Virus record (IMG/VR): IMGVR_UViG_3300036790_000408
Span: 32,001 to 96,000 of that record
Strand: one strand, 5' to 3'
From: a virus
Length of the DNA: 64,000 nucleotides
The position numbers were made by a program, and so were the translations under genes. Below the pieces are notes generated by a model, which worked only from the letters and a program-made list of their open reading frames with translations, was not told the DNA's origin and did no database searches. Shown here one piece after another: positions 2,355 to 27,867 of the stretch. Numbering within the stretch: position 1 is the first letter of the stretch; each line of letters starts with the position of its first letter.

Positions 2355-2909
2355 CTACCAATTTACCACGTTCGGCTTCACTCCCGCCGCCAGAGCCGCG
2401 CGCGGTGGACATAGCTTGTTCTGTTTGGTCGCCTGCTTCTGCCAGGAACAGACGTCGGCGAACCGACAGTCATAGGTCCGCGGTGGGTCCGGCTTGCGGC
2501 GGTTGGCCACGGCACGCTCCACCAATCTGTGCTGGAACCCAGTCGAGCACCCCACGAGCCACCAGGGACAGCCACCGTGGTCGATATCGTCCTGCTCGGG
2601 GCATGTGCCGGCATAGATCCCGGCGTTCGGCGAACCGTCATTGGCGATCAGCGGGCACATGGAGGCCGGGCAGATCACCTCCGGACCGCCTGGATCGAGC
2701 GGCTTGGAACGCTGCGGCTCGGTGGGCCCATTCGGCGGCGGTTGGCCTGGCCGCAGGTCGATCATGCCGTTGACCATCGGCGTCGGCAGGCAGGCCTGGC
2801 AGTACCATTTCCCACCGAAGGATCGGAATACCCTGGCTTCGAGCGGGGTATTGCCGCACTTGGAGCAGTTGAACTTCTTGGTGCCTGGATAGGCATCGCG
2901 CTCAACCAT
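2355..2909 (-). CDS. Cys-rich putative Zn-binding protein
   Basis: CSKC...CQAC plus further Cys clusters; tightly packed in the operon. Confidence 0.55.
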   Translation of the reverse strand: MVERDAYPGTKKFNCSKCGNTPLEARVFRSFGGKWYCQACLPTPMVNGMIDLRPGQPPPNGPTEPQRSKPLDPGGPEVICPASMCPLIANDGSPNAGIYAGTCPEQDDIDHGGCPWWLVGCSTGFQHRLVERAVANRRKPDPPRTYDCRFADVCSWQKQATKQNKLCPPRAALAAGVKPNVVNW

Positions 2910-3179
2910 TCAGAAGTCCAGATAGCCCGTATCTTTGGGCTTGGCTGCCTCTTTCATGCATTCCTTGCACGGTGGATTGTGCGGGAACTGAAAGCGACAG
3001 TTCAGATACTTCAGCTTTGATACCGGCATTCCGGCCTCTACCCACGCTTGATACCCAGCGGAGCACAGATCGAACGCGTTCGCCTCCTCCGGTGTCTCCT
3101 GCCGGACCTGGTAGTTCGAGAACTCGCTCACAGGAACCTCTTTTAGGTGGTCAGGCCTCGGTACGTTGACGGTATGCAT
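2910..3179 (-). CDS. Small hypothetical protein
   Basis: 89-aa ORF abutting the next gene; C-terminal CxxC. Confidence 0.5.
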   Translation of the reverse strand: MHTVNVPRPDHLKEVPVSEFSNYQVRQETPEEANAFDLCSAGYQAWVEAGMPVSKLKYLNCRFQFPHNPPCKECMKEAAKPKDTGYLDF

Positions 3180-11855: not shown

Positions 11856-13826
11856 CTACTGGTAAGTCTGGTTGGTGATCGTGATGCCAGCGGCTTTGGT
11901 CACGATGAATTTAGAGCTATCCGAGAAGTAGACGGTAAGCTGTTCGGTCTGCACCCCGGCGGTCGGCGGCACTGAATGCAGGTTCAATTCATTGCGGTTG
12001 ATCACCCACGGCAGGCTCAAGGCGGTAGCCGCGTTCTGCACGCTGGCCAGACCCCACCCGGCGCCGGCTGGATTAGTGTCCCAGTACTGCTGGAAAAACA
12101 CCGCGTCAGGCATCTGCGTCTGCAAGGTGGAGATCAGTGTCGGCTCGGAGAACGTGGTATCTCCCGCAGTTACCGAGCCGGGTCTGAACTCACTGATGCA
12201 AACCGTCTTGCCGAGAGCCGCGAGGGTATTGTAGTCGGCCTGCGCGGTGGTCGGCGTCGGCGGCGGTGGTGGCGGCGTCGTGCCACCGGCGCTGCCGGTC
12301 ACGATGTAATCCGTGGGTGGGGATTTATAGCCAAGAGTCGTATCCTCAATGACCATGTCGAACGTGCCCGACGAGGCCGGGGCGAACGTGAACTGAAAGG
12401 AATTAGTCCCCACCAAGGAGGGGCTTCCAGGAAGAGCCGCTTGCCCCGATCCGGCGCCGAGATCGGCCGTGAAGTGCGCCAAGGTGACCGGGTAATTGGT
12501 ATCCACCTGGACGGTATAGGTCTGGCTCGGTGGGATGCCGCCGCTTGGAAACTCGGTGATGACGATGATCGGATCAGTCGCACCATAAGCCCCGATCGGA
12601 TAACCGTAGACCTGCGCTCCCGAGCGCATGCCAGGATGGACCGGGCCTGAATTCAGATCAGGCCCAGAGAGTATGTTGCCACCGCCCTTGTCCCAGACCA
12701 CGGCGCCAATGACCGGCACGCCGATGCCAGTGTCGATCTGGTTCCACACCCGCTTCATGCGCGGAAAATAAAGCAGGTCGTTGCACGCTGCCTCATTGCC
12801 GGTATGCGCGGCTATTGGCAGGGTGCAAAGATTGGTGCCGGAGTTGCCGCCACCACTTACCTTGCCGTTCGTATAGAGCAGACCGACACCACCGAACTCG
12901 CTGTGCATCATCGGCTTCTGGTCGGCAAGCGCTGCTTGCACCAGGCTGTACAAGCTCTGTCCCTGTCCACCGTTGGGCTGGGCGGCCTTACCATCCATGA
13001 AATCGAGATAATGACTGGCGTTGTTGTAGGTGTAGCCCTGGCCGCCCTGGGTCGCCGCGACATTGTAATCGGTTGCCCAGAGATCATCCGTCGCGCCGGC
13101 GGGCAGCGTGCCAGCCGTGGCATTCAAGGTGAGCGGCGTCCCAGCAGCGTACCCGGGCCAGTTGGAGAGGTCCACCGGATACCAGTTGCACGAATAGAAA
13201 TCGACGCTGAGAATATCGTAATAGGCAGCTCCAGGCTTGTAGTTTGCAAGCTGGTTATTCGCGTCGAGATAGTTCAACGCACAGGTATCGAAGGCGATCA
13301 ACAGCGTCTTGCCGGTGAAGGTGGCGACCTTGGCGTAGAGCACCGTGGCCACATGCTGGAACGCGGCCTTGAACTGCGCCGCCCATGCAGTGTTGCCGCT
13401 GTTATAACCTCCAGGTGTGGTCTGGATATTCGACTCGTAGTTGAGACGCAAGATGATCGTGTTGTAAGCATAGAACATGTTGGTCATCATCTGCTGCCAC
13501 GTACTGTCGTACGTGCCAGCGGCATTGCCGGCGAGCGTCATGCTACCGTCAGCAGTGGCCAATGATGTTCCAATGACCGGAATGATCCCGGTGGCTGGAG
13601 CGAAATACCCCCCGTAGCCAACGGCTGTGCTTACCGAGTAGTACGCATTGGCCGGCATATTGGCCAGCGTGTCGAAGCCAGTATAGCCACCGAAGAATTT
13701 GACCGGCAAGCCTATCTGGCGTTGCCACTGTGGGTAGGATCCGCCTGGGGCGCTGGTGAACAGTCCCATCCCGATGCGAGGCATCCCGGCCCCTGGCGAG
13801 GCTGGGATCCAGGAGGCAAATGCCAT
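11856..13826 (-). CDS. Glycoside hydrolase (GH26-like, clan GH-A) plus Ig-like domain and orphan C-terminal GH26 fragment
   Basis: RLNYESN (acid/base), DILSVDFY, MHSEFGG (nucleophile); after a TTPPPPPPTPTT linker: DYNTLAALGKTVCISEFRP...PWVINRNEL. Confidence 0.7.
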   Translation of the reverse strand: MAFASWIPASPGAGMPRIGMGLFTSAPGGSYPQWQRQIGLPVKFFGGYTGFDTLANMPANAYYSVSTAVGYGGYFAPATGIIPVIGTSLATADGSMTLAGNAAGTYDSTWQQMMTNMFYAYNTIILRLNYESNIQTTPGGYNSGNTAWAAQFKAAFQHVATVLYAKVATFTGKTLLIAFDTCALNYLDANNQLANYKPGAAYYDILSVDFYSCNWYPVDLSNWPGYAAGTPLTLNATAGTLPAGATDDLWATDYNVAATQGGQGYTYNNASHYLDFMDGKAAQPNGGQGQSLYSLVQAALADQKPMMHSEFGGVGLLYTNGKVSGGGNSGTNLCTLPIAAHTGNEAACNDLLYFPRMKRVWNQIDTGIGVPVIGAVVWDKGGGNILSGPDLNSGPVHPGMRSGAQVYGYPIGAYGATDPIIVITEFPSGGIPPSQTYTVQVDTNYPVTLAHFTADLGAGSGQAALPGSPSLVGTNSFQFTFAPASSGTFDMVIEDTTLGYKSPPTDYIVTGSAGGTTPPPPPPTPTTAQADYNTLAALGKTVCISEFRPGSVTAGDTTFSEPTLISTLQTQMPDAVFFQQYWDTNPAGAGWGLASVQNAATALSLPWVINRNELNLHSVPPTAGVQTEQLTVYFSDSSKFIVTKAAGITITNQTYQ

Positions 13827-13835
13827 CGATCGTGC

Positions 13836-16800
13836 CTAATTCGGAGTCGGGAAGGCTACGCCGGCTTGCCCGGCAAGTGGATTGTTGCCGCTATTCGACG
13901 CAAACTCGGGCCACTCGGTAGCAAACGCCTTCAGCATCTCAATCCCCGCACTCGAGCCCCAGAACGACATCCACAAGCACTGACCGTTGGCAATGCCATT
14001 GTAGGCCTCGCTTTGAAACCAAGTGATGCGCTTGCGCAGATAAGCTGCCGCTTCTGGGATATTGGGGAAATCCGTGGCGGCAGGATATCCTGGAGCACCG
14101 TAGATATTAGTGCCTGTGTTCTTGCCGGCGCCATTGACACTGAGGTCATCACCCTCTGTCGCGTATCCCTCCGGAACGCCCCACATGCAACCATTCTGCA
14201 GCGCCCAGACCATACTCTCGAATGTGCCCCAGCCGCCCGACCAAGGTAGTCTGGTGGTTGGACTGGAGTTGTAAGAGGTCTGCTGAGACGAGCCGCCGCC
14301 ACCCCTGAAATCAGCCGCGTAGTACTCCGAACCGATATCGGCGAAGAAGGCCTGCACGCTCGCTGCGGTGCCGGTGGTGGAGAAACTCCCATTGAATGGA
14401 GCGGATGCAGCAAGAGCATCGTATCCATGCTTCAGATTGGTGGTGTTCGCGGCATATTTGTTGCCGAAATACAAATCCGGTCCATGCACATCGACCAGTT
14501 TTCCCCAGCCGTCAGCCGATTGGTATGAGGCTGTGTCAGGATAGAGTAGGCGCGGGTCGAACCATCCGCTCTGCAGGAGGCACGGCCCCCAGCATTTCCA
14601 TATGGTCATGCCGTTGGCTAGAGCGAACTGTTGCACGACATGAGCAAATCGACGCCATGCCTTAATGTACGCATCAGCAAACGCAGCTTGTCCGGTCGGG
14701 AGGCCGGAGATCGTTGTGGCAAAGCTTTGTTCTGACTCGCCTCCGTAATAGCCCCAGGCCGCACCGCCATTGGATACAGCCGCCGCTCCGTACTGCGATG
14801 ATCCAGCGCTTTGCCCACCCGGAGTGGTGGGGAGATTGTCCTCCCAACTGATACGAAGAACGATCGTCTTGTAACCGGCCGTCAAAAACGTCTGCATGTA
14901 ACTCTGGATCACAGAGTCAACGGAACCGGACGCGATCGAGGCGAAAGTCATCACGCCATCGGTGGTAGTCAGCGGAAGTCCGGCGATGGGGATGAGGTTG
15001 AACCCCAGCCCCGTCTTGTTGAAGGCCGGATAATTGTTCCAAGTCTGCAAATATCCGTTTATGCCGTAATTATATGCCCCTGAACTAGCAAAAGATCCAG
15101 TATACAGAAGCATATTTGTCGGCTTACAAAATGCCGACGTAAAGTTGCCAATGGCAACCGTGGCTAAATCCTGAGTGCCTTGGGTCTCGTCCCCTGGATA
15201 GGTCAACTCCATCCCCCAGCCGAGATAAGGCAGGCCGGCTACCGAGGTGGCGCCGCCAGTCGCGGGCGCGGCATTGACGGTGTACGCGACACCGAGCGAA
15301 GCGATGCCCGTGCCGCTATCCTGCATGTACGCGGTGTAACTGCCGGCGGCGGGGGTTGGAATGCCGGTGACCACCGCAATAAGATTGCTGCCGGACAGCG
15401 TCACATTGTAGCCGGCCGATTGAGCCGAGACAAAAGCCTTTGTGGCACCGACAGAAATCTGCACATCGGCCGCGCTAGTCCAAGGTAGCGTTCCCGTGCC
15501 TGTGAGGCTGAACGTCTGGCCATTCGTAGGATCTGGAATAGCGCTCACCGTGATCACGTCGGTCGGTGTGACCGTCGTCGTGGTCGAGGTGAACAAATCC
15601 AATCCAGTCATATCGACGTAGCTGTTGCCGGGATAGCGCGCGGCGGTCTGGGTGGATATCGAGAACGGCGACTGCGCCGTCCAGAGCCAGAGGATGTTCT
15701 GCAGGCCCTTTGATGTGGTCAGATAGTTCCAGGCATACTGCCACAGCGCGACGTACTGCGCGGCAGTCAAAAACTGGGTGCCCCACCAGAAGTCGCCGGC
15801 GTTCGATCGATAGAACGGTCGCAGGATGACCACGACGCCGGCCGTCTGGAGCGCCTGCAGGCCGGTGGCCACTTGGCTGAGCATGTTGACCAGGGCGGTG
15901 TTTGTCGCCGTCCCTGAAGTCAGCAGGTCGGCCACGGTAAGGGCCGAGAGATCAGTGCACACTCCCCCGGTCGTGGGGTTCGGCATCGACAGGCTTAAGG
16001 TGCAGATCCCACCCGCGTCCCAGTAGGTAATCGCGTTGGCATTGAACGTCGTCACCGCGGCGCCGGTGCCGGTCGGCGCCCAGTAATCGCCACCAATCAG
16101 CCCAAGCCATTGCCCATCGGCCGATTGGATCGCGCTGATAGGCGTCAACGGCCCAGTGCCGATGTACTCACCGGAGATCGAGCCGATGCCCTGCACCGAG
16201 CTTTGGATCTTGGCGAGCATGGTCTGGGCCGGCGTGTTGCTCGGCGGCGGCGTGATGGTTGACTGGGTCGTGGCCGTAACCGCCGGGGCGGACGGCGCCG
16301 AGTCGCCGACGCTATTGAACGCGAGCACCTGGAAATTGTACGCGGTACCCTGCGTCAGGCCGGTAATGACCTGGCTCGTACCCGGCGTCGTCGAGCCGTA
16401 GTTTGTATAGGCCGAGCTGGCTGCCGTCTTAAATTGAACCTGATAGCCAGTGACGGTGGGACCGCTGCTCGGCGGCTGCCAGGAGAGAGCGATCGAGTTG
16501 GTCGTGATCGCACCGACGCTCAGGCCAGTGGGTACTCCAGGCGACTGCGGCGTGCCTGGGACAGTGTACGTGACCAGAGCAGAGTCCGCTCCGTCTCCGG
16601 CTCCATTGGCGGCATAGACGACGTAGTCGTACGTGATCCCCTGATTGATCCCGGTCAGGGATATCGAGGTGCTCGTGGTGGTGCCGACGACAGAGTACTC
16701 CGCCGCGCCGGTCGGCGACTGCATGACGACGTAGGTGTACGGGCCGGAACCAGTGGCAGGTGGGGTCCAGCTCAGCCCGACGGCGGTGCTCGGAGCGGTC

Positions 16801-19800
16801 GCGGCTGCCGTATACGTACCGCCGCCATTACCCGCCGCGGCAACCACCAGCACAGGCACTTGCTGCGAAGCAATAGTGACAGTGGAAGACTGGACGTCGA
16901 TGACCTGCACCGGATGCGAGATCGCCGCACCAAGGATCCAACCGATTGTCGCGATCGTGCCGGTGCTGTCCCACGTGATACTGCCGCCGGTCGGTGGCGT
17001 GTCGGTGAACGGTGAGAATGTGATGCCGTTATAAGTAATGTTGCCGGTGGTATCGTACGGCGTGAAGTAGAGCGTGCTGATATTCGGCTTATAGTTGAAG
17101 GCGAACTCAACAAAGAACTCCTGCCCAGCCGTTTGATTGGGCAGCGACGACGGCATGGTGATGGACTGCGCGCCGGTGGCGACTGTCAGGCCAGTGACCT
17201 GACCCGGCGCCGTGACCGTTGGCGTCGAACCATGCCACGGCGGGAAAGTGCTCGGCACACCAGAAAATGAGAATGCTCCAGAGCCGGCGTTCAGCACCGC
17301 GACACCACCAGACTCACCGGTCGAGAAGCAGATCGAGAGCGGTCCGGAGACGGTGATCGGAATACCGCCGGTGCCAGTCGCCGGATTGGCTGTGGCGCTG
17401 TCGTTCCACGCATTCGACCCATAGGCCGCGCGCATCGTCGGGCTGGTGAACCATACCAGCTTGGCATCATCGTCCACGCAACATGTCACCACGGCGCCAG
17501 CCGCGTCGGCTGCCGGGGCGTTGCCGGATGGCGTCAGGACCGCGGCGTTGTTCTGCCGGATCGTGGTCGGCACAATCGCCGCCTGGGTGACGATGGTGCC
17601 GCCACCGGTTCCCGCGCCGGCGTCTGGGTTGGCTACGAGCTCCGGAAAGGCTGTGGCGAATGTGTTGAGCATCGCCTGCCCTTGACCCTCCCAGAAGGAG
17701 AACTGCAGGAAGACACCGTTGGCAATACCGTTCTTGGTCTTGTCCTGGAACCAATCGATCCGCGAGCGTGTGTAGGCGGCCAGGGTAAGTTCGTTGGCCC
17801 AGTTCGCCGCGCCACTAAACGACAGGCCGTTGTTGAGATTGCCTTTCGGATTAGTGCCGCCATCGTACTGGTCAAGACCACCGAACTCACAGAACATCAC
17901 GGCGAGTCCGTTCTGGAGGGCGAATATGAACGTTTCGTACATCGACATGCCACCCTGATATCCGATCGGGGTGGTCAGTGGATTGAGTGGAGCCTTGTAG
18001 CCGTCCGTCCAGTCAGCCCAGTACCATTTGGAACCTTCATCGGCGCCGAATTGCGCCTGCGTTGCTCCGGTCGAGGTGACCGTGCCGGCGGTGAATGGCT
18101 GCTGGTTGATGTACCCAGAACGAAGATTGGTGGTGTCGCCCCAGAAATTTCCGAAATAGAAATCCGGCCCAAGACAATCGACCAGTTTGCCATGCCCATC
18201 GGTCTGCACGCTATCGGGGTACGAGTCCCGCCAGTCGATGCTGTCGCTGGAGATGATGGTCGGGCCCCAGACCATGGTCAAATCCATGCCGAGGGACGCC
18301 GCATGCTGCTTCAGGTCATAGGCGACCGCTCTCCATGCGGCAATAAAAGCGTTGGCATAAGCAGTCCCGCCGCCGTAGAATGTCCACGGACAATAAGAAC
18401 CAGCCGGGTAATTACTTCCAGGAGAAGCGTCTTGACCAGCAGGAGTTGTGGGATAATTGTCCTCCCAACAAAGTCTTACTGCTATCTTCTTGAAACCTGC
18501 ATTATACCATAGAGTAAGTATGTTATTAAAGTAGGCGGTATTCTGATGAGCCGCTGCACTGGCAAAGGTGACCGTGCCATCAGTCGTGGTCAGTGGTAGG
18601 CCATAGATCGGGATGCATGGCTTGGTCAGGGTGCCGGGAATGGCGGCAGTCGTGCCATTCCAATACGGGTCAGCCTTCCAGCCATTGATATATGACTGGG
18701 TGTAATAGGTGATGTTGCCCTGGGTATCGAAGGCACCCGGATAAACGAGGCAGGTGCGCGGCGTGCAGAACTGCTGGCAGAACCAGATCCAGGTCGGATC
18801 CGGGGCAGTTCCATTACCCGGATAGCAGAGATCGACGCCGACACCCCAGAGCGGCAGACCCAGGACGGATGCGGTCGCAACCGAGGCCGGGACGTTCGCT
18901 GGATAGTAGCCGAGTCCATTGGCGTCGTTGCCGAGCTCGGTAGTGTTGAGCGAGAAGCTGCTGTTGACCAAGCCGATCGCGACGCTGTCCGACACCCCGC
19001 TGAGGGTGACTTCGAACGCAGCCTTGCCGCCACTGATCTGCTGCGCGCTCAGCACGCCCTGGCGGCTCGCGCCAACTGTCGATGAGCCGCCGGCGGTGGC
19101 TGTCAGGTTGCTGTTGGTGATGGCAATGGTCGAACTTGCGCCGGTCGGCTGCCATCCCGTTACCGTTGGAGCGGTCGCTGCGGTGGCCGTGGTTAGGATG
19201 GTCGAGAACGCACCGTCGCCAGAAGCATTGAATGCTTGCACCTGGAAGTCGTAGGTGGTGCCGCTCGACAGCCCGGTGATCTGAGCGTTGCTCACGGTCA
19301 CGCTCGGCCCGGCCGTAAAGGTATTCATCCCGGTCGGCGAGTACTGGGTGTTGTATCCTGTAGGCGCGGCTCCGCCACTGGGTGGCAGCCAGACCAGATT
19401 GACCGCGGTGGTGGTGGCGCCCGCCGACACTACGCCGGTCGGCACACCCACGGCGGTGACGATCGTTTGCGTCGTGCTAACGGTCAGGATCGCCGAGTCG
19501 GGGCCCTGGCCAACCGAATTGATGGCATAGACCTCGATATCGTACGAGGTGCCAGGCAAGAGCCCAGAGATCGTGGCTTCGAGGCCTGACTGTGCCGGCA
19601 GACTGGTCCAACTGGAGGCCGCAATACTGAACGAGATAGTCGCTTTGGCCACCCCATCCGTCACCAGCAGAGTATAGTTTCCGGCCGCGAGTCCAGAATG
19701 GATAAAGCTGAACGAGGTCAGTGTGACTTGCGCGCCAGAGGGCATGCTCTGGGCTGGGCCGCCGTTGTCCTCGTAGACCAGCGTTGGGATCGCGGTGTAA

Positions 19801-22145
19801 TTCGTCAGCGTTCCGGTGACGGTGAAGGCGGTGTTCGCCTGCGTCGTGCCGATGCCATTCAGACTGATGGCTGGGGCCGACGCGAGTGGACTTACCAGCG
19901 TGCCGCCGACCGGCAGCCAAGGACCGTTCGGACCGGTCTCGTAGTACCACAGGTTGGATGTGTTTTCGTACCACATCTGGCCGCCGACCCAGGCGATCTC
20001 AACGACGCCGGATGTCACCGGGGCGAGGGTCTGCGGCTGATTGTTCGATGAGACGACAAGGGCTGTGGCCGCCGTCGTGCTGGCCGCCGTTGCGGTGTAC
20101 GTTCCGCCGCCACCCGAAGTGCCAACCTGATAAGTTAGCTCAGCGCTGAGCGTGGTCGGGGTGGTGTTGGTATCCTCGACCTGGAAATAGTGAACCGCCT
20201 GCGTGCCGCTGCTGATCGGGATGGTGGCAATGGTCCCGGTGCTGTCCCAAGTGATCCCCGTGTTGGCGCTGAATGGGCCGAACACCACGCCAGCGGAGTT
20301 GGCCGAGTACTGGAGATTGGCACCCTTCACCGGCACGTAATCAAAGGCGGCTTGGACATAGAACGTCTGGCCAGCGGTTTGCTGCGGCAGGCTGGCGGGC
20401 ACAGTGATCGAGTTGCCGGAAGACGCGGCGACGCCGAAGATCGTCCCGGTCGAGACGTTCGTGCTGGGATAAGATGCCGCGGCACCGAATACCGTCGCCG
20501 GCGCGTCGGCCGAGGTGAAGGAGAACGCGACCGATTGGCCGGGCTGCAGCGGCGTCGTTGCCGTCCACTCGATCCCATAGCCGCCGGCCGCCCCGGTGAC
20601 CGTCGCGGTCCAGCCGGACGGCGTGCTGGGCGTGGGCAAGCTGGGTAGGTAGTTTTGGCCCGGTTGCCATGCGTACCAATAGGTCGCAATCGGCACCGAG
20701 CCATTGTTCAGAAGCGTATCGACGTAGGTGTACGTCGATCCCGACAGGCTGTTCGTGATGTTCGAAATGGCACTCAGGCCAGAGACACTCGTCGCCGTGC
20801 CGACCAAGCCATTGATCGCGACCTGCGCGCCAGCCGTGATGGTGTAGCGATTGCCCCCATTGTCCGTCAGGGAGCCCGTGGTGCCGGTAAGCGTCGATTT
20901 GTCTGGCGATGGACCGCCGGCAACCGCAGCAACCGTATAGGCGCCGGATGATCTTTGGTTGGTGCCGTCCGAAATGACGGTCGTATGGCTGCCCGAGGCC
21001 AGGCCGGGATGGGAGAAGCTGAACGATGTCGTGGTGACGACGGCGCCGGCCGGGAAAGCTGTCGGCACGCCCGCGCCATCGTCGGCATAGGTCAGCGTTG
21101 GCGGCGAGTTGTACCCCGAAAGGACACCGCTCATGGTGAATGGTGTCGAAGCGGCCGGCTGCGATGGTGTCGCGACAATTATGGTGGGCGTGGCCGGCGT
21201 AGTGATCGTGAAATTGCCGGTGGTGACCGAGATCGCAGTGTTATTGGCGTCGCGCACCGAGATCGTGTGCGCACCCGCCGCAAGCCCAGAGGGATGCGTG
21301 AAATTGAACGACGAGGTTGTGACGGTGGCGCCGGTGGGCAGCGCAACATAGGTGCCGCTGTCATCCCGGTACTGCAGCGTCGGTGCCGTGGCGTAGCCTG
21401 AGATCGTGCCGGCGACCGCAAAGCTGACATTCGAGGCCTGATTGGTCGGCGTCGTGATGCCGAGCGCAGCCCCACTGGTGGGCGTCGCGGTCCACTGCGG
21501 GATCCACGTCGTGCCGTCTGTGCTAGTAAACAGCGTCGCCGAACTGCCAGGATCGTCGATGGTAACCTGGCCGGTGACAACGAGATTGGTCGTGTCGACC
21601 GTGCAAGCGACAACGTCAGGGTCAGTCGTGTGGATCGGATTGGAGTTGCCGCGCCAGCACATCCAGGCCTGGGTCGGCAGTGTCGGCCGCACCAAGGCAA
21701 CCGACGTACCCACCGCGCCAGAGGCTAGGACCGGATACGATACCTGTGCCGACTGCAGCGCTTGACCAGACTGCAGACCAGGAGCAGCGGTATCGTTGAT
21801 CTGAAACAGCTTGGCCGACGACGCGTCGTAATTATACAGACCGATGGTCAGCAGGGCGCGCGGCGGACTCGCGCTGGTGGTGGCGAGGGTAGCGCTGCCA
21901 TGTGCCGTGGTGGCAGCAACAAAGACCGGCGGCGGACCGGCGTTGTTAAATTGCAACGATGCGATTGAGGAGGGAATGTAGGAGAGGTATCCGAGTCCGC
22001 TATAAGCGGTATTGATATTCTCCGGACCTGGATTACCAATCGTAATAATGTTGATGTTCGCCGTGATGGTCTGAGCGCCCGCCACGAGCGTGGCTGGCTT
22101 TGGCACCGACAAGGTGAACGGAACGTATGTTATAGTCCCAGACAT
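13836..22145 (-). CDS. Giant multidomain virion appendage protein (Ig-like, FN3, SPRY, two GH-A modules, truncated GH26)
   Basis: 2769 aa; FN3 motifs (GLxxGTxYxFxVxAxNxxG); GH modules RLCWEDN...FCEFGG and RISWEDN...VPEGY; GH26 part RPFYRSNAGDFWWG...YPGNSYVDMTGLD. Confidence 0.8.
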   Translation of the reverse strand: MSGTITYVPFTLSVPKPATLVAGAQTITANINIITIGNPGPENINTAYSGLGYLSYIPSSIASLQFNNAGPPPVFVAATTAHGSATLATTSASPPRALLTIGLYNYDASSAKLFQINDTAAPGLQSGQALQSAQVSYPVLASGAVGTSVALVRPTLPTQAWMCWRGNSNPIHTTDPDVVACTVDTTNLVVTGQVTIDDPGSSATLFTSTDGTTWIPQWTATPTSGAALGITTPTNQASNVSFAVAGTISGYATAPTLQYRDDSGTYVALPTGATVTTSSFNFTHPSGLAAGAHTISVRDANNTAISVTTGNFTITTPATPTIIVATPSQPAASTPFTMSGVLSGYNSPPTLTYADDGAGVPTAFPAGAVVTTTSFSFSHPGLASGSHTTVISDGTNQRSSGAYTVAAVAGGPSPDKSTLTGTTGSLTDNGGNRYTITAGAQVAINGLVGTATSVSGLSAISNITNSLSGSTYTYVDTLLNNGSVPIATYWYAWQPGQNYLPSLPTPSTPSGWTATVTGAAGGYGIEWTATTPLQPGQSVAFSFTSADAPATVFGAAASYPSTNVSTGTIFGVAASSGNSITVPASLPQQTAGQTFYVQAAFDYVPVKGANLQYSANSAGVVFGPFSANTGITWDSTGTIATIPISSGTQAVHYFQVEDTNTTPTTLSAELTYQVGTSGGGGTYTATAASTTAATALVVSSNNQPQTLAPVTSGVVEIAWVGGQMWYENTSNLWYYETGPNGPWLPVGGTLVSPLASAPAISLNGIGTTQANTAFTVTGTLTNYTAIPTLVYEDNGGPAQSMPSGAQVTLTSFSFIHSGLAAGNYTLLVTDGVAKATISFSIAASSWTSLPAQSGLEATISGLLPGTSYDIEVYAINSVGQGPDSAILTVSTTQTIVTAVGVPTGVVSAGATTTAVNLVWLPPSGGAAPTGYNTQYSPTGMNTFTAGPSVTVSNAQITGLSSGTTYDFQVQAFNASGDGAFSTILTTATAATAPTVTGWQPTGASSTIAITNSNLTATAGGSSTVGASRQGVLSAQQISGGKAAFEVTLSGVSDSVAIGLVNSSFSLNTTELGNDANGLGYYPANVPASVATASVLGLPLWGVGVDLCYPGNGTAPDPTWIWFCQQFCTPRTCLVYPGAFDTQGNITYYTQSYINGWKADPYWNGTTAAIPGTLTKPCIPIYGLPLTTTDGTVTFASAAAHQNTAYFNNILTLWYNAGFKKIAVRLCWEDNYPTTPAGQDASPGSNYPAGSYCPWTFYGGGTAYANAFIAAWRAVAYDLKQHAASLGMDLTMVWGPTIISSDSIDWRDSYPDSVQTDGHGKLVDCLGPDFYFGNFWGDTTNLRSGYINQQPFTAGTVTSTGATQAQFGADEGSKWYWADWTDGYKAPLNPLTTPIGYQGGMSMYETFIFALQNGLAVMFCEFGGLDQYDGGTNPKGNLNNGLSFSGAANWANELTLAAYTRSRIDWFQDKTKNGIANGVFLQFSFWEGQGQAMLNTFATAFPELVANPDAGAGTGGGTIVTQAAIVPTTIRQNNAAVLTPSGNAPAADAAGAVVTCCVDDDAKLVWFTSPTMRAAYGSNAWNDSATANPATGTGGIPITVSGPLSICFSTGESGGVAVLNAGSGAFSFSGVPSTFPPWHGSTPTVTAPGQVTGLTVATGAQSITMPSSLPNQTAGQEFFVEFAFNYKPNISTLYFTPYDTTGNITYNGITFSPFTDTPPTGGSITWDSTGTIATIGWILGAAISHPVQVIDVQSSTVTIASQQVPVLVVAAAGNGGGTYTAAATAPSTAVGLSWTPPATGSGPYTYVVMQSPTGAAEYSVVGTTTSTSISLTGINQGITYDYVVYAANGAGDGADSALVTYTVPGTPQSPGVPTGLSVGAITTNSIALSWQPPSSGPTVTGYQVQFKTAASSAYTNYGSTTPGTSQVITGLTQGTAYNFQVLAFNSVGDSAPSAPAVTATTQSTITPPPSNTPAQTMLAKIQSSVQGIGSISGEYIGTGPLTPISAIQSADGQWLGLIGGDYWAPTGTGAAVTTFNANAITYWDAGGICTLSLSMPNPTTGGVCTDLSALTVADLLTSGTATNTALVNMLSQVATGLQALQTAGVVVILRPFYRSNAGDFWWGTQFLTAAQYVALWQYAWNYLTTSKGLQNILWLWTAQSPFSISTQTAARYPGNSYVDMTGLDLFTSTTTTVTPTDVITVSAIPDPTNGQTFSLTGTGTLPWTSAADVQISVGATKAFVSAQSAGYNVTLSGSNLIAVVTGIPTPAAGSYTAYMQDSGTGIASLGVAYTVNAAPATGGATSVAGLPYLGWGMELTYPGDETQGTQDLATVAIGNFTSAFCKPTNMLLYTGSFASSGAYNYGINGYLQTWNNYPAFNKTGLGFNLIPIAGLPLTTTDGVMTFASIASGSVDSVIQSYMQTFLTAGYKTIVLRISWEDNLPTTPGGQSAGSSQYGAAAVSNGGAAWGYYGGESEQSFATTISGLPTGQAAFADAYIKAWRRFAHVVQQFALANGMTIWKCWGPCLLQSGWFDPRLLYPDTASYQSADGWGKLVDVHGPDLYFGNKYAANTTNLKHGYDALAASAPFNGSFSTTGTAASVQAFFADIGSEYYAADFRGGGGSSQQTSYNSSPTTRLPWSGGWGTFESMVWALQNGCMWGVPEGYATEGDDLSVNGAGKNTGTNIYGAPGYPAATDFPNIPEAAAYLRKRITWFQSEAYNGIANGQCLWMSFWGSSAGIEMLKAFATEWPEFASNSGNNPLAGQAGVAFPTPN

Positions 22146-22160
22146 GCAGTTTCCTTCGTC

Positions 22161-22922
22161 CTACGGCGTTGGACGATACTGAACGACGTACGTAAATGGA
22201 GGAGTTCCCGACGCCGGCGGGCTCCAGTCCACGGTGAGGTCATTGTTGTCGGCTGAGACCAGGGCGAGGTTCAGCGGCGCGCTTGGGGCGATGGCTCCTG
22301 AGGCTGTCGCCACATTGGATAATGTGGATGACGCCGAGCCTGAGCCTGCGGTATTCGATGCAACGACGTAAAAATCATAGGCATCGCCCTGCGTCAGGCC
22401 GGTGATCTGCTCGGTTGTGGCTGAAACCGCCGAACCCATCGGCGAGAAGCTGTTCGCTCCATGCAGCGAGCCATAGACCTGATAGGTGAATGGCGTAGTG
22501 CCTGTGGTTGGTGCCGTCCATTGTAGAGTGACCGAATTCGGTCCTGGATTGCCGACAACGGCCACTGCGGTCGGCGCACTCGGCGCGAGTCCGGATGTCG
22601 TTGCCGACACGCTGGTGGATGCCGTGGTGCCGCTGGCATTCAGCGAGAGCACCTGGAAATTGTAACTGGTGTTCGACGCTAGCCCGAAAATTTGCAACGA
22701 AGCGACCGTGATCAGGCTGCCGATATTGTTCCACGTCGACGATCCGGAAACCTGCTGCTGCACCTGGTATTCGAATGGTCCACTGCCGGTGACAGGAGGG
22801 GTCCATGACAGTGTCAAACCGGTTGGGGTGACACTCGATATGGTCAGATTGGTGGCTGATCCAGGCACGACACCAAGGTCAGGCGTCGTCACCTGCAAGA
22901 TGGGTGACGTACTGGTTCCCAT
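22161..22922 (-). CDS. FN3-repeat protein (begins and ends mid-domain)
   Basis: Start moved to ATG 22922 preceded by AGGA; two complete FN3 repeats, an orphan N-terminal strand (MGTSTSPILQVTT) and a half FN3 at the end (...PFTYVVQYRPTP*). Confidence 0.75.
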   Translation of the reverse strand: MGTSTSPILQVTTPDLGVVPGSATNLTISSVTPTGLTLSWTPPVTGSGPFEYQVQQQVSGSSTWNNIGSLITVASLQIFGLASNTSYNFQVLSLNASGTTASTSVSATTSGLAPSAPTAVAVVGNPGPNSVTLQWTAPTTGTTPFTYQVYGSLHGANSFSPMGSAVSATTEQITGLTQGDAYDFYVVASNTAGSGSASSTLSNVATASGAIAPSAPLNLALVSADNNDLTVDWSPPASGTPPFTYVVQYRPTP

Positions 22923-22943
22923 AGAGGATTTCCTATATAAAAC

Positions 22944-22978
22944 GAGGCGCCGAGACCTGCCAGGGTCTCGGGCGCCTC
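22944..22978 (-). terminator. GC-rich hairpin followed by GTTTT on the minus strand (terminator-like)
   Basis: GAGGCGCCGAGACC-tgccag-GGTCTC(g)GGCGCCTC; 14-bp stem with one bulge. Confidence 0.5.
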
Positions 22979-23006
22979 TAACCACCAATCCTTGACGGAG
23001 GACTGA

Positions 23007-23561
23007 ATGGCTGTGTCGATATTACCATCCGCAGAATACCTGCGCGAATGCTTCCTGTATGATGCCGAAACCGGCAATCTGATTTGGCTAGAGCGCCCAA
23101 TGTCTCACTTTAGTTTGGCGCGCATGGCTAAACGAGCCAATACGATGTGGGCTGGTAAGGTGGCTGGATACAAACGGATCCAGGACGGAAGGACCGTCAT
23201 AGCCGTGAGTCTCAACACGGATTTATTTTTGGCACACCGCATCATCTGGAAAATGATCATAGGAGAAGAGCCGCCCCTGGAACTTGATCATGAGGATCGA
23301 GATCCAACCAATAACAAGTGGTACAACCTTCGAGTAGCAAATAGATCACAGCAATCCTGGAACAGGAAGCGCCACTTCGATAACAAGAGTGGAGCAAAGG
23401 GTGTTCACTGGTATCCAAAAACCAAGAAATGGGTAGCCCAAATTCAAGTTCACGGGAAGAAGATATTCCTCGGCTATCATCCCTCTATTGAGGGGGCTCA
23501 TAAAGCCTACGTGGATGCCGCAAAAAAGTATTTCGGCGACTATTGGTCAGACGGATCCTAG
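23007..23561 (+). CDS. HNH homing endonuclease with AP2-like C-terminal domain (antisense insertion)
   Basis: FLAHRIIW...LDHEDRDPTNNKWYNLR...N; SGAKGVHWYPKTKKWVAQI...KIFLGY; GGAGG RBS; AT-richer. Confidence 0.9.
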   Translation: MAVSILPSAEYLRECFLYDAETGNLIWLERPMSHFSLARMAKRANTMWAGKVAGYKRIQDGRTVIAVSLNTDLFLAHRIIWKMIIGEEPPLELDHEDRDPTNNKWYNLRVANRSQQSWNRKRHFDNKSGAKGVHWYPKTKKWVAQIQVHGKKIFLGYHPSIEGAHKAYVDAAKKYFGDYWSDGS

Positions 23562-24790
23562 AGGTTCGTTGTTACGACTTCAAAATCGTATTCCTGATCC
23601 GGAAGAAGATTTATTACGGTCACCGTAAGGGCGCTCATTCCGACGAACAAATTCTGCCAAACCGTTGTGCCAGTCTGACGATAGTTCACCGAGTACGTGA
23701 ACGGGAGAGTCCCGACGGTAGGTGGCTCCCACTCCAGCGTGACAGCGGTCGCCTGTACCAAGAGAGCGGAGAGGTCTTGCGCTGGCCCTGGCGGGATGAG
23801 CGCCGTTTGCACGGTGATTGGAGCCGACGTGCTGGCACCGGCCGAATTTCTGACGACGATCTCGAAATCATAGACCGCGCCAGGTGTCAGGCCGGTGATC
23901 GTCGCATTGGCCGAAGTGATGGTCGGGCCCGAATAAAATTGCGTGGTGCCATCGACCCGATAGAGCACGACAAAGGTGTACGGCGGCGTGCCGATCGTAG
24001 GGACGTCCCAGGTCAACGCAACGCTGGTGGTGCCAAGGATCTGCCCAGACAGGTTCAGCGCGGGGCCAGGAGGCGTCAGGCCAGTGACGGATTGCAGAGC
24101 GGCCTGGGATAGCAGCTTGACCCAGATCGTTGTGCCATAGGCCCTTAGGCGATTGAGCGTGTTGTTGAGGGCGTCCACGTCAGCCGCCTGGATAATGCCA
24201 AAGAAGTACCCCGGCACGTTCCAGTAGGCGGTTCCCCAGGTCAGAATGGGGTTGTTGGCACCGATCGCCGAAATCGATGGGGGGGTGGTCTCGATGTATC
24301 CTTGGTAGCGCGTGCTGCCGGCCCAGCGTGCCGGATTAGCAACCGTATCCACGCCCCAATAGCTGTTGGCTCCCCACCCGCCGGTATCGGTGGGGTTCCA
24401 GGGCTCCATCATGCGGGGCAGTTGCCCGGTCAGATCGATTAGAGCGTTTTGCAGGGCTTGTCTGGTTGCCGCGGGCTGGAAAAGCTGGGCAATGATCTCG
24501 GAAGCGAACGTGGCATCCGAGGCGCCGGCCGGTCGAGGAAGTGTGCCGCCGAGAAAATCGATTGAGGCCAGGTCAAGCTCGGGGGATGTCGCTGTGCCGA
24601 TCCGCTCAGCGCCTAGAGCGTACTGGATCTCCGATTGCACGAACTGAATTTGCTGCGCGACGGAAAGCAAGAGAGCAAAGACGTTGCCGGATTGCTTGGC
24701 ATCGTCGCCTGCCCATCCTCGGGGGAATAGATCAGCCAGGCGGTTGACGAATTGCTGCGGGCTGATGGTCGGTATCAGGGTGCCGGACAT
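23558..24790 (-). CDS. Baseplate wedge (gpI-like) protein fused to FN3 repeats
   Basis: Follows baseplate J; LDLASIDFLG..LPR...SD..F...I...LFQP.ATRQAL; two C-terminal FN3, the last lacking its final strand. Confidence 0.7.
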   Translation of the reverse strand: MSGTLIPTISPQQFVNRLADLFPRGWAGDDAKQSGNVFALLLSVAQQIQFVQSEIQYALGAERIGTATSPELDLASIDFLGGTLPRPAGASDATFASEIIAQLFQPAATRQALQNALIDLTGQLPRMMEPWNPTDTGGWGANSYWGVDTVANPARWAGSTRYQGYIETTPPSISAIGANNPILTWGTAYWNVPGYFFGIIQAADVDALNNTLNRLRAYGTTIWVKLLSQAALQSVTGLTPPGPALNLSGQILGTTSVALTWDVPTIGTPPYTFVVLYRVDGTTQFYSGPTITSANATITGLTPGAVYDFEIVVRNSAGASTSAPITVQTALIPPGPAQDLSALLVQATAVTLEWEPPTVGTLPFTYSVNYRQTGTTVWQNLFVGMSALTVTVINLLPDQEYDFEVVTTNL

Positions 24791-27141: not shown

Positions 27142-27210
27142 TAACCCTTGCGGACGAAGAGGCCGTCTCCTACCTTCATCACCCTTAGCTTTTTAGATCG
27201 GTGGTATATT

Positions 27211-27867
27211 ATGGGAAGGACTCCAGACTTATCCGACCAAGAGTTCGGTCGGTTGAGGGTTCTATCGTTCGCTGGTCGGGATAGGGCCGGTAGAGCGCGT
27301 TGGCTTTGCCAATGTGAGTGCGCCAAAGAAGTTGAGATTAACGCATATCGTCTTCAAACTGGACACACGAGATCATGTGGGTGTTTGAGGATTGAGGCCT
27401 CAGTCGAAAAATTACATGGAGTACACACCAGACAAACGGCGCATGGATTATCAAAAACAAAAGAATACAAAAGCTGGAGTAGTATGATGCATAGATGCAG
27501 CAACGCACTAGCGCACAATTACTCTAACTATGGCGGTCGCGGCATAGTTGTATGCGAGCGGTGGTTTCAGTTTGAAAACTTTCTTGCTGATATGGGAGAA
27601 CGTCCCATTAGAACTTCGTTGGATAGGATCGACAATGACGGAGCCTATGAACCGGGTAATTGTCAGTGGTCTACCCCAGTCACACAAAGCGGCAATCGCC
27701 GGAACAGCCGATATATTATTGTCGAGGATAAGCGCATGACAGTTGCCGAAGCCGCTCGACAATATGGAATTGATAGAGGTGTTGTTCGTGTACGATTAGG
27801 TATGGGATGGTCGGTAAAAAAAGCGCTATCTACGCCAGTTCGAGCTTGCATCAGACGCGCGAATTAA
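27211..27867 (+). CDS. HNH-family phage endonuclease (antisense insertion)
   Basis: FGRL.V...WLCQCEC...SCGC, YGGRGI.VCERW...F..DMGERP...SLDRIDNDG.YEPGNC.W; start moved to ATG 27211. Confidence 0.85.
   Translation: MGRTPDLSDQEFGRLRVLSFAGRDRAGRARWLCQCECAKEVEINAYRLQTGHTRSCGCLRIEASVEKLHGVHTRQTAHGLSKTKEYKSWSSMMHRCSNALAHNYSNYGGRGIVVCERWFQFENFLADMGERPIRTSLDRIDNDGAYEPGNCQWSTPVTQSGNRRNSRYIIVEDKRMTVAEAARQYGIDRGVVRVRLGMGWSVKKALSTPVRACIRRAN

Follow-up and report, generated by a model that had tools for sequence, protein, structure and literature searches.

Two kinds of divided protein are already known that bear on the locus described here. In chaperone-usher pili, an immunoglobulin (Ig)-like fold without its C-terminal G strand is completed by the N-terminal extension of the next subunit, giving a non-covalent linear polymer of different subunits, and in Aeromonas phage Aeh1 the gene nrdA is split by mobE, so that its product is encoded in two open reading frames (ORFs) whose products must reassemble. 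Fold complementation between subunits and the splitting of genes by endonuclease insertion are thus both established. Here we describe a window of 64,000 nucleotides (bases 32001-96000 of a 134,436-bp IMG/VR virus record, IMGVR_UViG_3300036790_000408, with direct terminal repeats) in which the boundaries between four genes of a late, minus-strand tail operon, g1 to g4, lie inside protein domains: two fibronectin type III (FN3) domains and one glycoside hydrolase family 26 (GH26) barrel. The phage of the window is referred to as W, related loci as L003-L012, and related proteins by P-numbers. The most likely reading, drawn from sequence and structural modelling, is that the split domains probably work in trans as connectors that join the subunits of an accessory branched appendage, a proposal to which we give somewhat better than even chances.

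The locus shares features with several described systems and departs from each. As in the donor-strand complementation of pili, g1 of W lacks a G strand and the N-terminus of g2 carries a matching one. Unlike in pili, the fold is FN3 and is on a phage baseplate, each joint is used once and not polymerised, neither a chaperone nor an usher is expected for a virion, and two further joints divide domains into 3+4 strands and 6+2 barrel units; the pairing in W is predicted. As with nrdA and mobE, parts of a product lie in separate ORFs, and an HNH endonuclease gene stands between two of them; unlike in Aeh1, the split in W predates the endonuclease and is fixed across the whole family, and the proteins would be structural connectors, not an enzyme. 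In the engineered SpyTag/SpyCatcher pair and in split FN3 and split green fluorescent protein, a terminal strand and the rest of its domain reassemble spontaneously, whereas the W case is natural and an isopeptide bond is not indicated.

Phages CBA120, G7C and phi92 have branched multi-depolymerase appendages whose adaptors are complete N-terminal domains docking on each other. The appendage proposed for W would likewise use dedicated modules to link its enzyme-bearing subunits with each other and with the baseplate, although its adaptors would be halves of one domain. The GH26 beta-mannanases (e.g. 2whk) align with part of the g3 protein, and the C-terminal part of g4 continues the same domain in intact phage relatives; in contrast to these enzymes, a 3.3-kb insert distributes the barrel of W over two proteins, and its HE motif is YR. 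A limited literature search found no description of strand or fold complementation at the baseplate or fibres of a phage, nor of conserved connectors made from split FN3 or barrel domains in phage appendages, and within that search it agrees with an earlier reading of this DNA from its letters alone (the sequence-only reading), which knew of no such case for phage appendages.

Four tail genes with boundaries inside domains

The genes concerned are listed in their order on the minus strand.

24790-23558, minus strand: g1, a baseplate protein of 410 aa with a UCP028438-type N-domain, one complete FN3 and one FN3 without strand G; it follows the Baseplate_J gene
22922-22161, minus strand: g2, 253 aa, with a G strand, two complete FN3 domains and then an FN3 half, A-B-C
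22145-13836, minus strand: g3, the giant appendage protein, 2769 aa
13826-11856, minus strand: g4, 656 aa, with an X3 domain, an Ig-like domain, the C-part of a GH26 domain and a 40-aa tail

A divided FN3 domain in g2 and the giant protein

The second of the three joints is formed by the end of g2 and an internal piece of the giant.

22164-22265, minus strand: g2 residues 220-253, FN3 strands A-B-C, the first half of joint 2, at positions 3-29 of the FN3 hidden Markov model (HMM)
19455-19610, minus strand: giant residues 846-897, orphan FN3 strands C'-E-F-G, the second half of joint 2

The FN3 HMM has 92 positions and was built from the family's own domains. By this measure g2 ends at position 29, after strand C, and giant residues 839-906, directly after an Ig-like domain, are an orphan FN3 piece covering positions 26-91, as expected from the proposal that g2 ends with half an FN3 whose other half sits about 840 aa into the giant. 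Complementary halves are present in W, L003, L007, L005, L004 and L010/L012; in these loci the FN3-chain protein ends at about position 29, and the orphan piece in the large downstream protein starts at position 18-29, always after the same Ig-like domain. The distance of the orphan half into its carrier protein varies from 196 to 1105 residues depending on the locus, and in L004 two other genes lie between the partners. L006 is cut later, the N part reaching position 36 and the C part starting at position 41 after a poly-Pro linker. Including L006, exactly complementary FN3 halves are present together in seven of seven loci, and no uninterrupted version of this FN3 was found among the collected sequences of relatives.

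Joint 2 was the one of the three joints submitted to complex prediction, using g2 residues 122-253, giant residues 765-1000 and custom alignments. The interface score ipSAE (interaction prediction score from aligned errors) is 0.72, whereas the best of three controls scores 0.00. The mark applied to this score is reached by 58 of 80 solved complexes and by 2 of 110 mismatched pairs, counts that hold only roughly here because custom alignments were used. At least 90% of the contacts are shared by the three runs, with a predicted local distance difference test score (pLDDT) of at least 80 for the partner. The interface consists of g2 residues 210-253 and giant residues 845-895, that is, of the two halves, and the closest contacts are between strands C and F and between strands B and E, as in a normal FN3. 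The model suggests that the g2 and giant halves probably re-form one FN3 in trans, and it favours the refolding put forward in the sequence-only reading to the extent that it speaks for compatibility of the halves, not for binding.

An FN3 domain without strand G at the end of g1

Joint 1 lies at the boundary of g1 and g2.

23561-23785, minus strand: g1 residues 336-410, FN3 strands A-F only, the acceptor of joint 1
22881-22922, minus strand: g2 residues 1-14, an FN3 G strand at the very N-terminus, the donor of joint 1

The second FN3 of g1 stops five residues past the F-strand motif YDFEV. It spans positions 1-65 of the FN3 HMM, and an AlphaFold2 (AF2) model of g1 gives it six strands at pLDDT >90, with strand G absent. 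The N-terminus of g2 is MGTSTSPILQVTT, and the five g1 residues after the motif together with the first 13 of g2 make 18, the number found after the same motif in the complete FN3 of g1. HMM, model and residue count all agree with the earlier statement that g1 ends within an FN3 and that the next gene starts with its missing end; the start assigned to g2 in that reading (22880, 239 aa) has to be moved to the start codon at 22922, which gives 253 aa, as in L003. We infer from these sequences that strand G of the last g1 FN3 is supplied by the first 13 residues of g2.

Both sides of this boundary recur. A search of 5.8 billion proteins recovered about 70 g1 homologs of 45-89% identity, nearly all 407-415 aa long and matched with full coverage. 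The C-terminus lies 4-8 residues past the F-strand motif in 65 of 67 g1-family proteins, the two exceptions being contig-cut fragments. On the donor side, ten proteins from independent contigs (g2 and nine homologs) share the N-terminal pattern G-T/S-S-x-S-x(3-4)-V-T/I-T, with the start codon (ATG, GTG, TTG or probably ATC) directly before G-T-S. Joint 1 has in this respect the two components of donor-strand complementation, an Ig-like acceptor without its C-terminal G strand and a next subunit that carries the missing strand as an N-terminal extension; loci without the second component (L009 and L010-12) are considered below. The N-domain of g1 is listed as Pfam UCP028438 in precomputed lists and matches phrog_26379, whose function is given as unknown in PHROGs. 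A fold search with g1 returned FN3 matches only (Z ~14-15), and the N-domain gave no fold match.

Several related loci differ in detail around this joint. Extra genes of 82-160 aa with a single FN3 ending right after strand F are found at L004:11254-11613, L005:11245-11727, L006:11239-11487 and L008 approx. 2894-3150, where they separate g1 from the G-strand-first gene; in L004 the reading frame of the small FN3 gene continues past a TGA into the gene that follows. The G-strand-first gene at L007:11248 seems to begin with ATC, 8 nt after AAGGA, with no ATG, GTG or TTG available. L009:2068-4282 is one long ORF in which an FN3 A-B-C half is fused straight to the next FN3 and another FN3 is interrupted in cis by ~63 residues.

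A GH26 barrel divided between the giant protein and g4

Joint 3 involves a barrel domain and a large insert.

15576-16193, minus strand: giant residues 1985-2190, the N-terminal three quarters of a GH26 barrel, in which YR replaces the acid/base motif HE
12258-15575, minus strand: the insert in the GH26 domain, consisting of linker, Ig-like domain, X2, stop, 9 nt, start, X3, Ig-like domain and proline-rich linker
11982-12257, minus strand: g4 residues 524-615, the final quarter of the GH26 barrel, whose ISEF motif contains the nucleophile Glu

The Pfam GH26 profile (PF02156) matches giant residues 2004-2190 at profile positions 43-235 of 311, scoring 106.5 bits, above the gathering score of 20.2. 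The best solved match of giant residues ~1996-2198 is Bacillus subtilis mannanase 2whk, residues 43-255 (E = 8e-25). Nine relatives with an intact GH26 domain were found, and the giant part and g4 residues 524-614 match them at adjoining positions with equal identity; in P0078, for example, the giant part matches residues 1070-1271 (56%) and the g4 part residues 1271-1361 (55%). The GH26 N-part and C-part are therefore where the sequence-only reading had placed them, in the giant and near the end of the next gene, and in W no single polypeptide holds the whole barrel. An uninterrupted GH26 is also present in the giant protein of L012 (a member of the same phage family, its g1 51% identical) and in six other contigs, which shows that the split form is derived. 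Judged from these alignments, the cause of the split is the 3.3-kb insert, which contains the g3/g4 gene boundary.

The relatives also delimit the idea that one ancestral polypeptide was cut by insertions. Uninterrupted forms were sought for the divided domains and found for GH26 (in L012 and other contigs) and not for the joint-2 FN3; descent of all four genes from one ancestral polypeptide is not supported, and the g1/g2 boundary does not stem from the insertion of the HNH gene.

The halves stay open and keep their motifs overall, as had been noted, with the exception of the acid/base motif. The acid/base Glu (HE) is replaced by YR in W and L003 and by AR in L007, and the HE motif is retained in P0077, P0078 and P0081-85. 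The nucleophile Glu is kept, in g4, and the Glu of the EFRPG motif is invariant in seven homologs. Normal retaining catalysis is unlikely because HE is YR, and it does not explain the conservation of the split domain, since the acid/base Glu is lost here and kept in most of the intact relatives. A well-conserved barrel without its acid/base residue would fit a structural role. We infer, again from sequence comparison, that strands 1-6 of a GH26 barrel without catalytic activity come from the giant and the last quarter from g4. GH26-C is the most conserved segment of g4, with 69-88% identity compared with 50-76% for X3 among six homologs that are 52-80% identical overall. The AF2 model of g4, built from seven sequences, has a mean pLDDT of 43.7 and is uninformative on X3 and the GH26 C-part.

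In L007 the giant (L007:12017-18346) ends inside GH26 after the WWG motif, at a breakpoint other than that of W, and the next gene (L007:18358-20238) runs into a long poly-Pro tract where the contig ends. X1, X2 and X3 are homologous to one another and distantly to GH26. A 70-aa ORF between g3 and g4 at L003:20352-20564 is absent from W, where the gap is 9 nt.

Selection on the divided domains

Substitution rates were compared between W and L003, a pair in which synonymous sites are near saturation. All of the orphan pieces are under purifying selection, with ratios of nonsynonymous to synonymous rates (dN/dS) of about 0.05-0.08, and the halves are better conserved than the neighbouring whole domains. 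The strand-G-less FN3 of g1 has a dN of 0.079, compared with 0.141 for the complete FN3 of the same protein. The first 14 residues of g2 are identical in 14 of 14 positions despite six nucleotide changes, and its A-B-C half is identical in 33 of 34, with a dN of 0.027 compared with 0.152 for the whole FN3 domains of g2. In the giant, the orphan FN3 half has a dN of 0.094 and a dN/dS of 0.05 (dN is 0.178 for the next FN3), and GH26-N has a dN/dS of 0.077. Neutral evolution of the orphan halves, or their loss in relatives, had been named in advance among the outcomes that would tell against split-domain assembly; they are instead retained and selected.

Stop codons and the endonuclease gene

All four genes and the HNH gene end in TAG (13836-13838, 22161-22163, 23558-23560, 11856-11858). 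The shared TAG is probably due to chance and shared history, since relatives differ. Over 128 ORFs the stop codons are TGA in 71, TAG in 29 and TAA in 28, and the only tRNA of the genome is tRNA-Ser(TGA), so that there is neither a suppressor tRNA nor a genome-wide avoidance of TAG.

The spacer between g1 and g2 holds a gene on the opposite strand.

23007-23561, plus strand: a homing endonuclease gene with HNH_3 and AP2 domains, inserted in the g1-g2 spacer and no part of joint 1

The HNH_3 and AP2 matches have E = 7e-11 and E = 5e-7, and the ORF lies between the two FN3 parts. The cassette encodes a free-standing homing endonuclease and entered the spacer by insertion; its presence there shows that g1 and g2 are expressed as separate products. 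No group I intron was found around the cassette by Rfam at E up to 1, and no variant of W without the HNH gene was seen among the contigs of the one soil run that carries the window. The TAG stop of the HNH gene overlaps that of g1 at CTAG, and the stretch from the 5' end of the HNH gene to the g2 ribosome-binding site contains a strong GC hairpin and, after it, a T-run.

Alternative explanations

Two explanations concern the gene boundaries themselves. If a homing endonuclease cassette had split a once-continuous g1-g2 gene, as mobE split nrdA in Aeh1, then an HNH_3 and AP2 ORF exactly between the two FN3 parts is what would be found, and the end of the cassette does adjoin the g2 ribosome-binding site and start codon. 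However, in L003, whose g1 is 89% identical and which has no HNH gene, the same g1 stop and the same g2 start are 8 nt apart; the gene is no more continuous there than in W, and the g1 family ends at that position. The HNH-free boundary of L003 and the 65 of 67 family proteins that end there show that the cassette is not the cause of the split, the Rfam search revealed no intron, and we give this history hardly any credence. The stops could alternatively be read through or recoded, making g2-g3-g4 one polypeptide and the split domains nested insertions in cis. In W, g2 shares its frame with g3, and g3 with g4, the gaps being only TAG and 15 nt at the first junction and TAG and 9 nt at the second, and g1-g4 all end in the same codon. 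But the in-frame stops are not kept in relatives: the frame is shared at g2/g3 by L003, which has a TGA stop and the 70-aa ORF between g3 and g4, and the g2/g3 and g3/g4 junctions of L007, L005 and L004 are out of frame. Because the in-frame TAG arrangement is peculiar to W, these are taken as ordinary stops. A good ribosome-binding site (GAAGGAAA) precedes the ATG of g3, TAG ends 29 of the 128 ORFs with no suppressor tRNA to read it, and the opposite-strand HNH gene separates g1 from g2, all of which makes readthrough very improbable.

The other two explanations accept the boundaries and deny the pairing. The halves may be conserved for reasons other than each other, such as packing on the neighbour domain of their own chain, another partner, or translation signals (at the end of g2), with the subunits joined by other, unrecognised surfaces. 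The six-strand FN3 of g1 is predicted confidently alone, a G-strand-first donor is missing from some lineages, and the g2 A-B-C half has a low dS. These observations are set against FN3 halves that are exactly complementary and together in all seven loci, with the cut shifted in both halves in L006, against an orphan half inside the giant that translation signals cannot explain, and against a model that pairs the halves by canonical FN3 strand contacts with controls at 0.00; we consider conservation for other reasons unlikely, although it is the alternative to be taken most seriously. The halves might also be neutral scars of illegitimate recombination in a mosaic fibre locus, functionless yet undeleted. 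Phage fibre loci are highly mosaic, the intact GH26 of relatives shows that this split came from insertion, and breakpoints differ between lineages (L006, L007). Scars would not, however, be expected to have dN/dS of 0.05-0.08 and more identical residues than the flanking whole domains, to survive in lineages so far apart that their g1 proteins share only 45-60% identity, or to keep the G strand unchanged in all 14 residues through six nucleotide changes, and we regard this origin as improbable.

Several observations weigh against connectors in trans. L009 and L010-12 have a strand-G-less g1 yet no gene that starts with a G strand. L004, L005, L006 and L008 carry the extra small FN3 gene, which is also without strand G, and so have two acceptors for one visible donor. 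The g2 A-B-C half has a low dS as well as a low dN (dS 0.45 for 34 codons), and its nucleotide sequence may therefore be constrained to some degree. Because the FN3 fold is so familiar, the result of the complex prediction, which demonstrates the compatibility of the halves, may stem from the model's memory of it. Examples of the split GH26 are confined to the W/L003 clade and six g4 homologs whose upstream genes lay outside the comparison, and the phage is known from metagenomes only.

A proposed assembly and its origin

Under the connector reading, g1-g2-g3-g4 would form an accessory branched appendage, presumably located on the baseplate of the virion of a contractile-tailed soil phage and carrying GH26-like domains predicted to be probably glycan-degrading. 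The open FN3 of g1 would take the N-terminal strand of g2, and the half FN3 of g2 and the orphan half of the giant would then form one domain. As the orphan half is at giant residues 846-897, the giant would hang from g2 at its middle, with an N-arm of 845 residues and a C-arm of 1870 residues. The dead GH26 barrel would close round the C-part of g4 and so tether an extra GH26-like domain, X3.

The joints may have arisen when DNA cassettes containing a gene boundary (stop, ribosome-binding site and start) inserted into a loop of a domain already present, selection then retaining the halves because they served as connectors; the HNH gene would be a later intergenic passenger. In distant relatives the ordinary fibre gene (g5) comes immediately after the gene for a g1-like protein without FN3. 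In the clade of W, g1 would have gained an FN3 arm, and g2-g4 would have been added between g1 and the fibre gene.

An 11-bp repeat (22176-22186 and 19624-19634) was considered as a footprint of such an insertion and rejected. It occurs in W alone and is absent from L003 and four other loci; 11-mer pairs of this kind number 134 in the region, which puts the probability that one falls at these places at ~0.01; and recombination between the copies would not restore the reading frame; the repeat is probably a chance occurrence.

Genomic setting

The minus-strand order is Baseplate_J gene, g1, (HNH gene on the plus strand), g2, g3, g4, g5, the outer genes being as follows.

25932-24790, minus strand: Baseplate_J gene, phrog_6, baseplate wedge subunit
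11844-10249, minus strand: g5, an ordinary tail fibre gene

A second plus-strand ORF (27148-27867, 239 aa) also lies inside the minus-strand tail operon. The G+C content of the window is ~60%. One sequencing run carries the window, a soil metagenome that is probably its source, and no RNA run is listed among the runs that carry it. In an independent Logan assembly, which probably derives from the source run, the whole region has the same sequence, and these gene boundaries recur in JGI, ENA, NCBI and Logan contigs; assembly error is unlikely for these two reasons. The INPHARED phage collection contained no close relative of W and the GTDB genomes no g1 relative, and a scan for promoters and terminators gave no signal above shuffled background.

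Two further segments of the giant stand out. Segment B2 (16821-17210, giant residues 1646-1775) is 41% identical between W and L003, with a dN/dS of 0.44, whereas its neighbours are ~80% identical; module exchange could account for this, as could rapid evolution of a domain that possibly faces the receptor. Residues 996-1645 (17211-19160) contain, by eye, a beta-sandwich (SPRY/lectin-like) domain that is apparently split in cis by the 426-aa X1, which would be a nested insertion within one polypeptide; neither piece matched in Pfam. Pfam and PDB sequence searches likewise gave no match for the g4 C-part, the X domains or the beta-sandwich halves.

Implications

Host range depends on how accessory fibres and depolymerases attach to the baseplate, and this attachment is a target of phage engineering. 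A broader generalization, which we offer tentatively and think rather less probable than the connectors themselves, is that a soil myophage family uses split domains as heritable plug-and-socket connectors (6+1 FN3, 3+4 FN3 and 6+2 dead TIM barrel), with subunits added by boundary-carrying cassettes. The connectors can be tested with recombinant fragments, for which the host is not required, and, if real, would supply natural, orthogonal, self-assembling pairs of FN3 and TIM-barrel fragments or tags for protein engineering. For the phages themselves they would represent a new attachment principle for virions, one that explains how very large multi-enzyme appendages grow by insertion and that would provide a general route to modular appendage growth.

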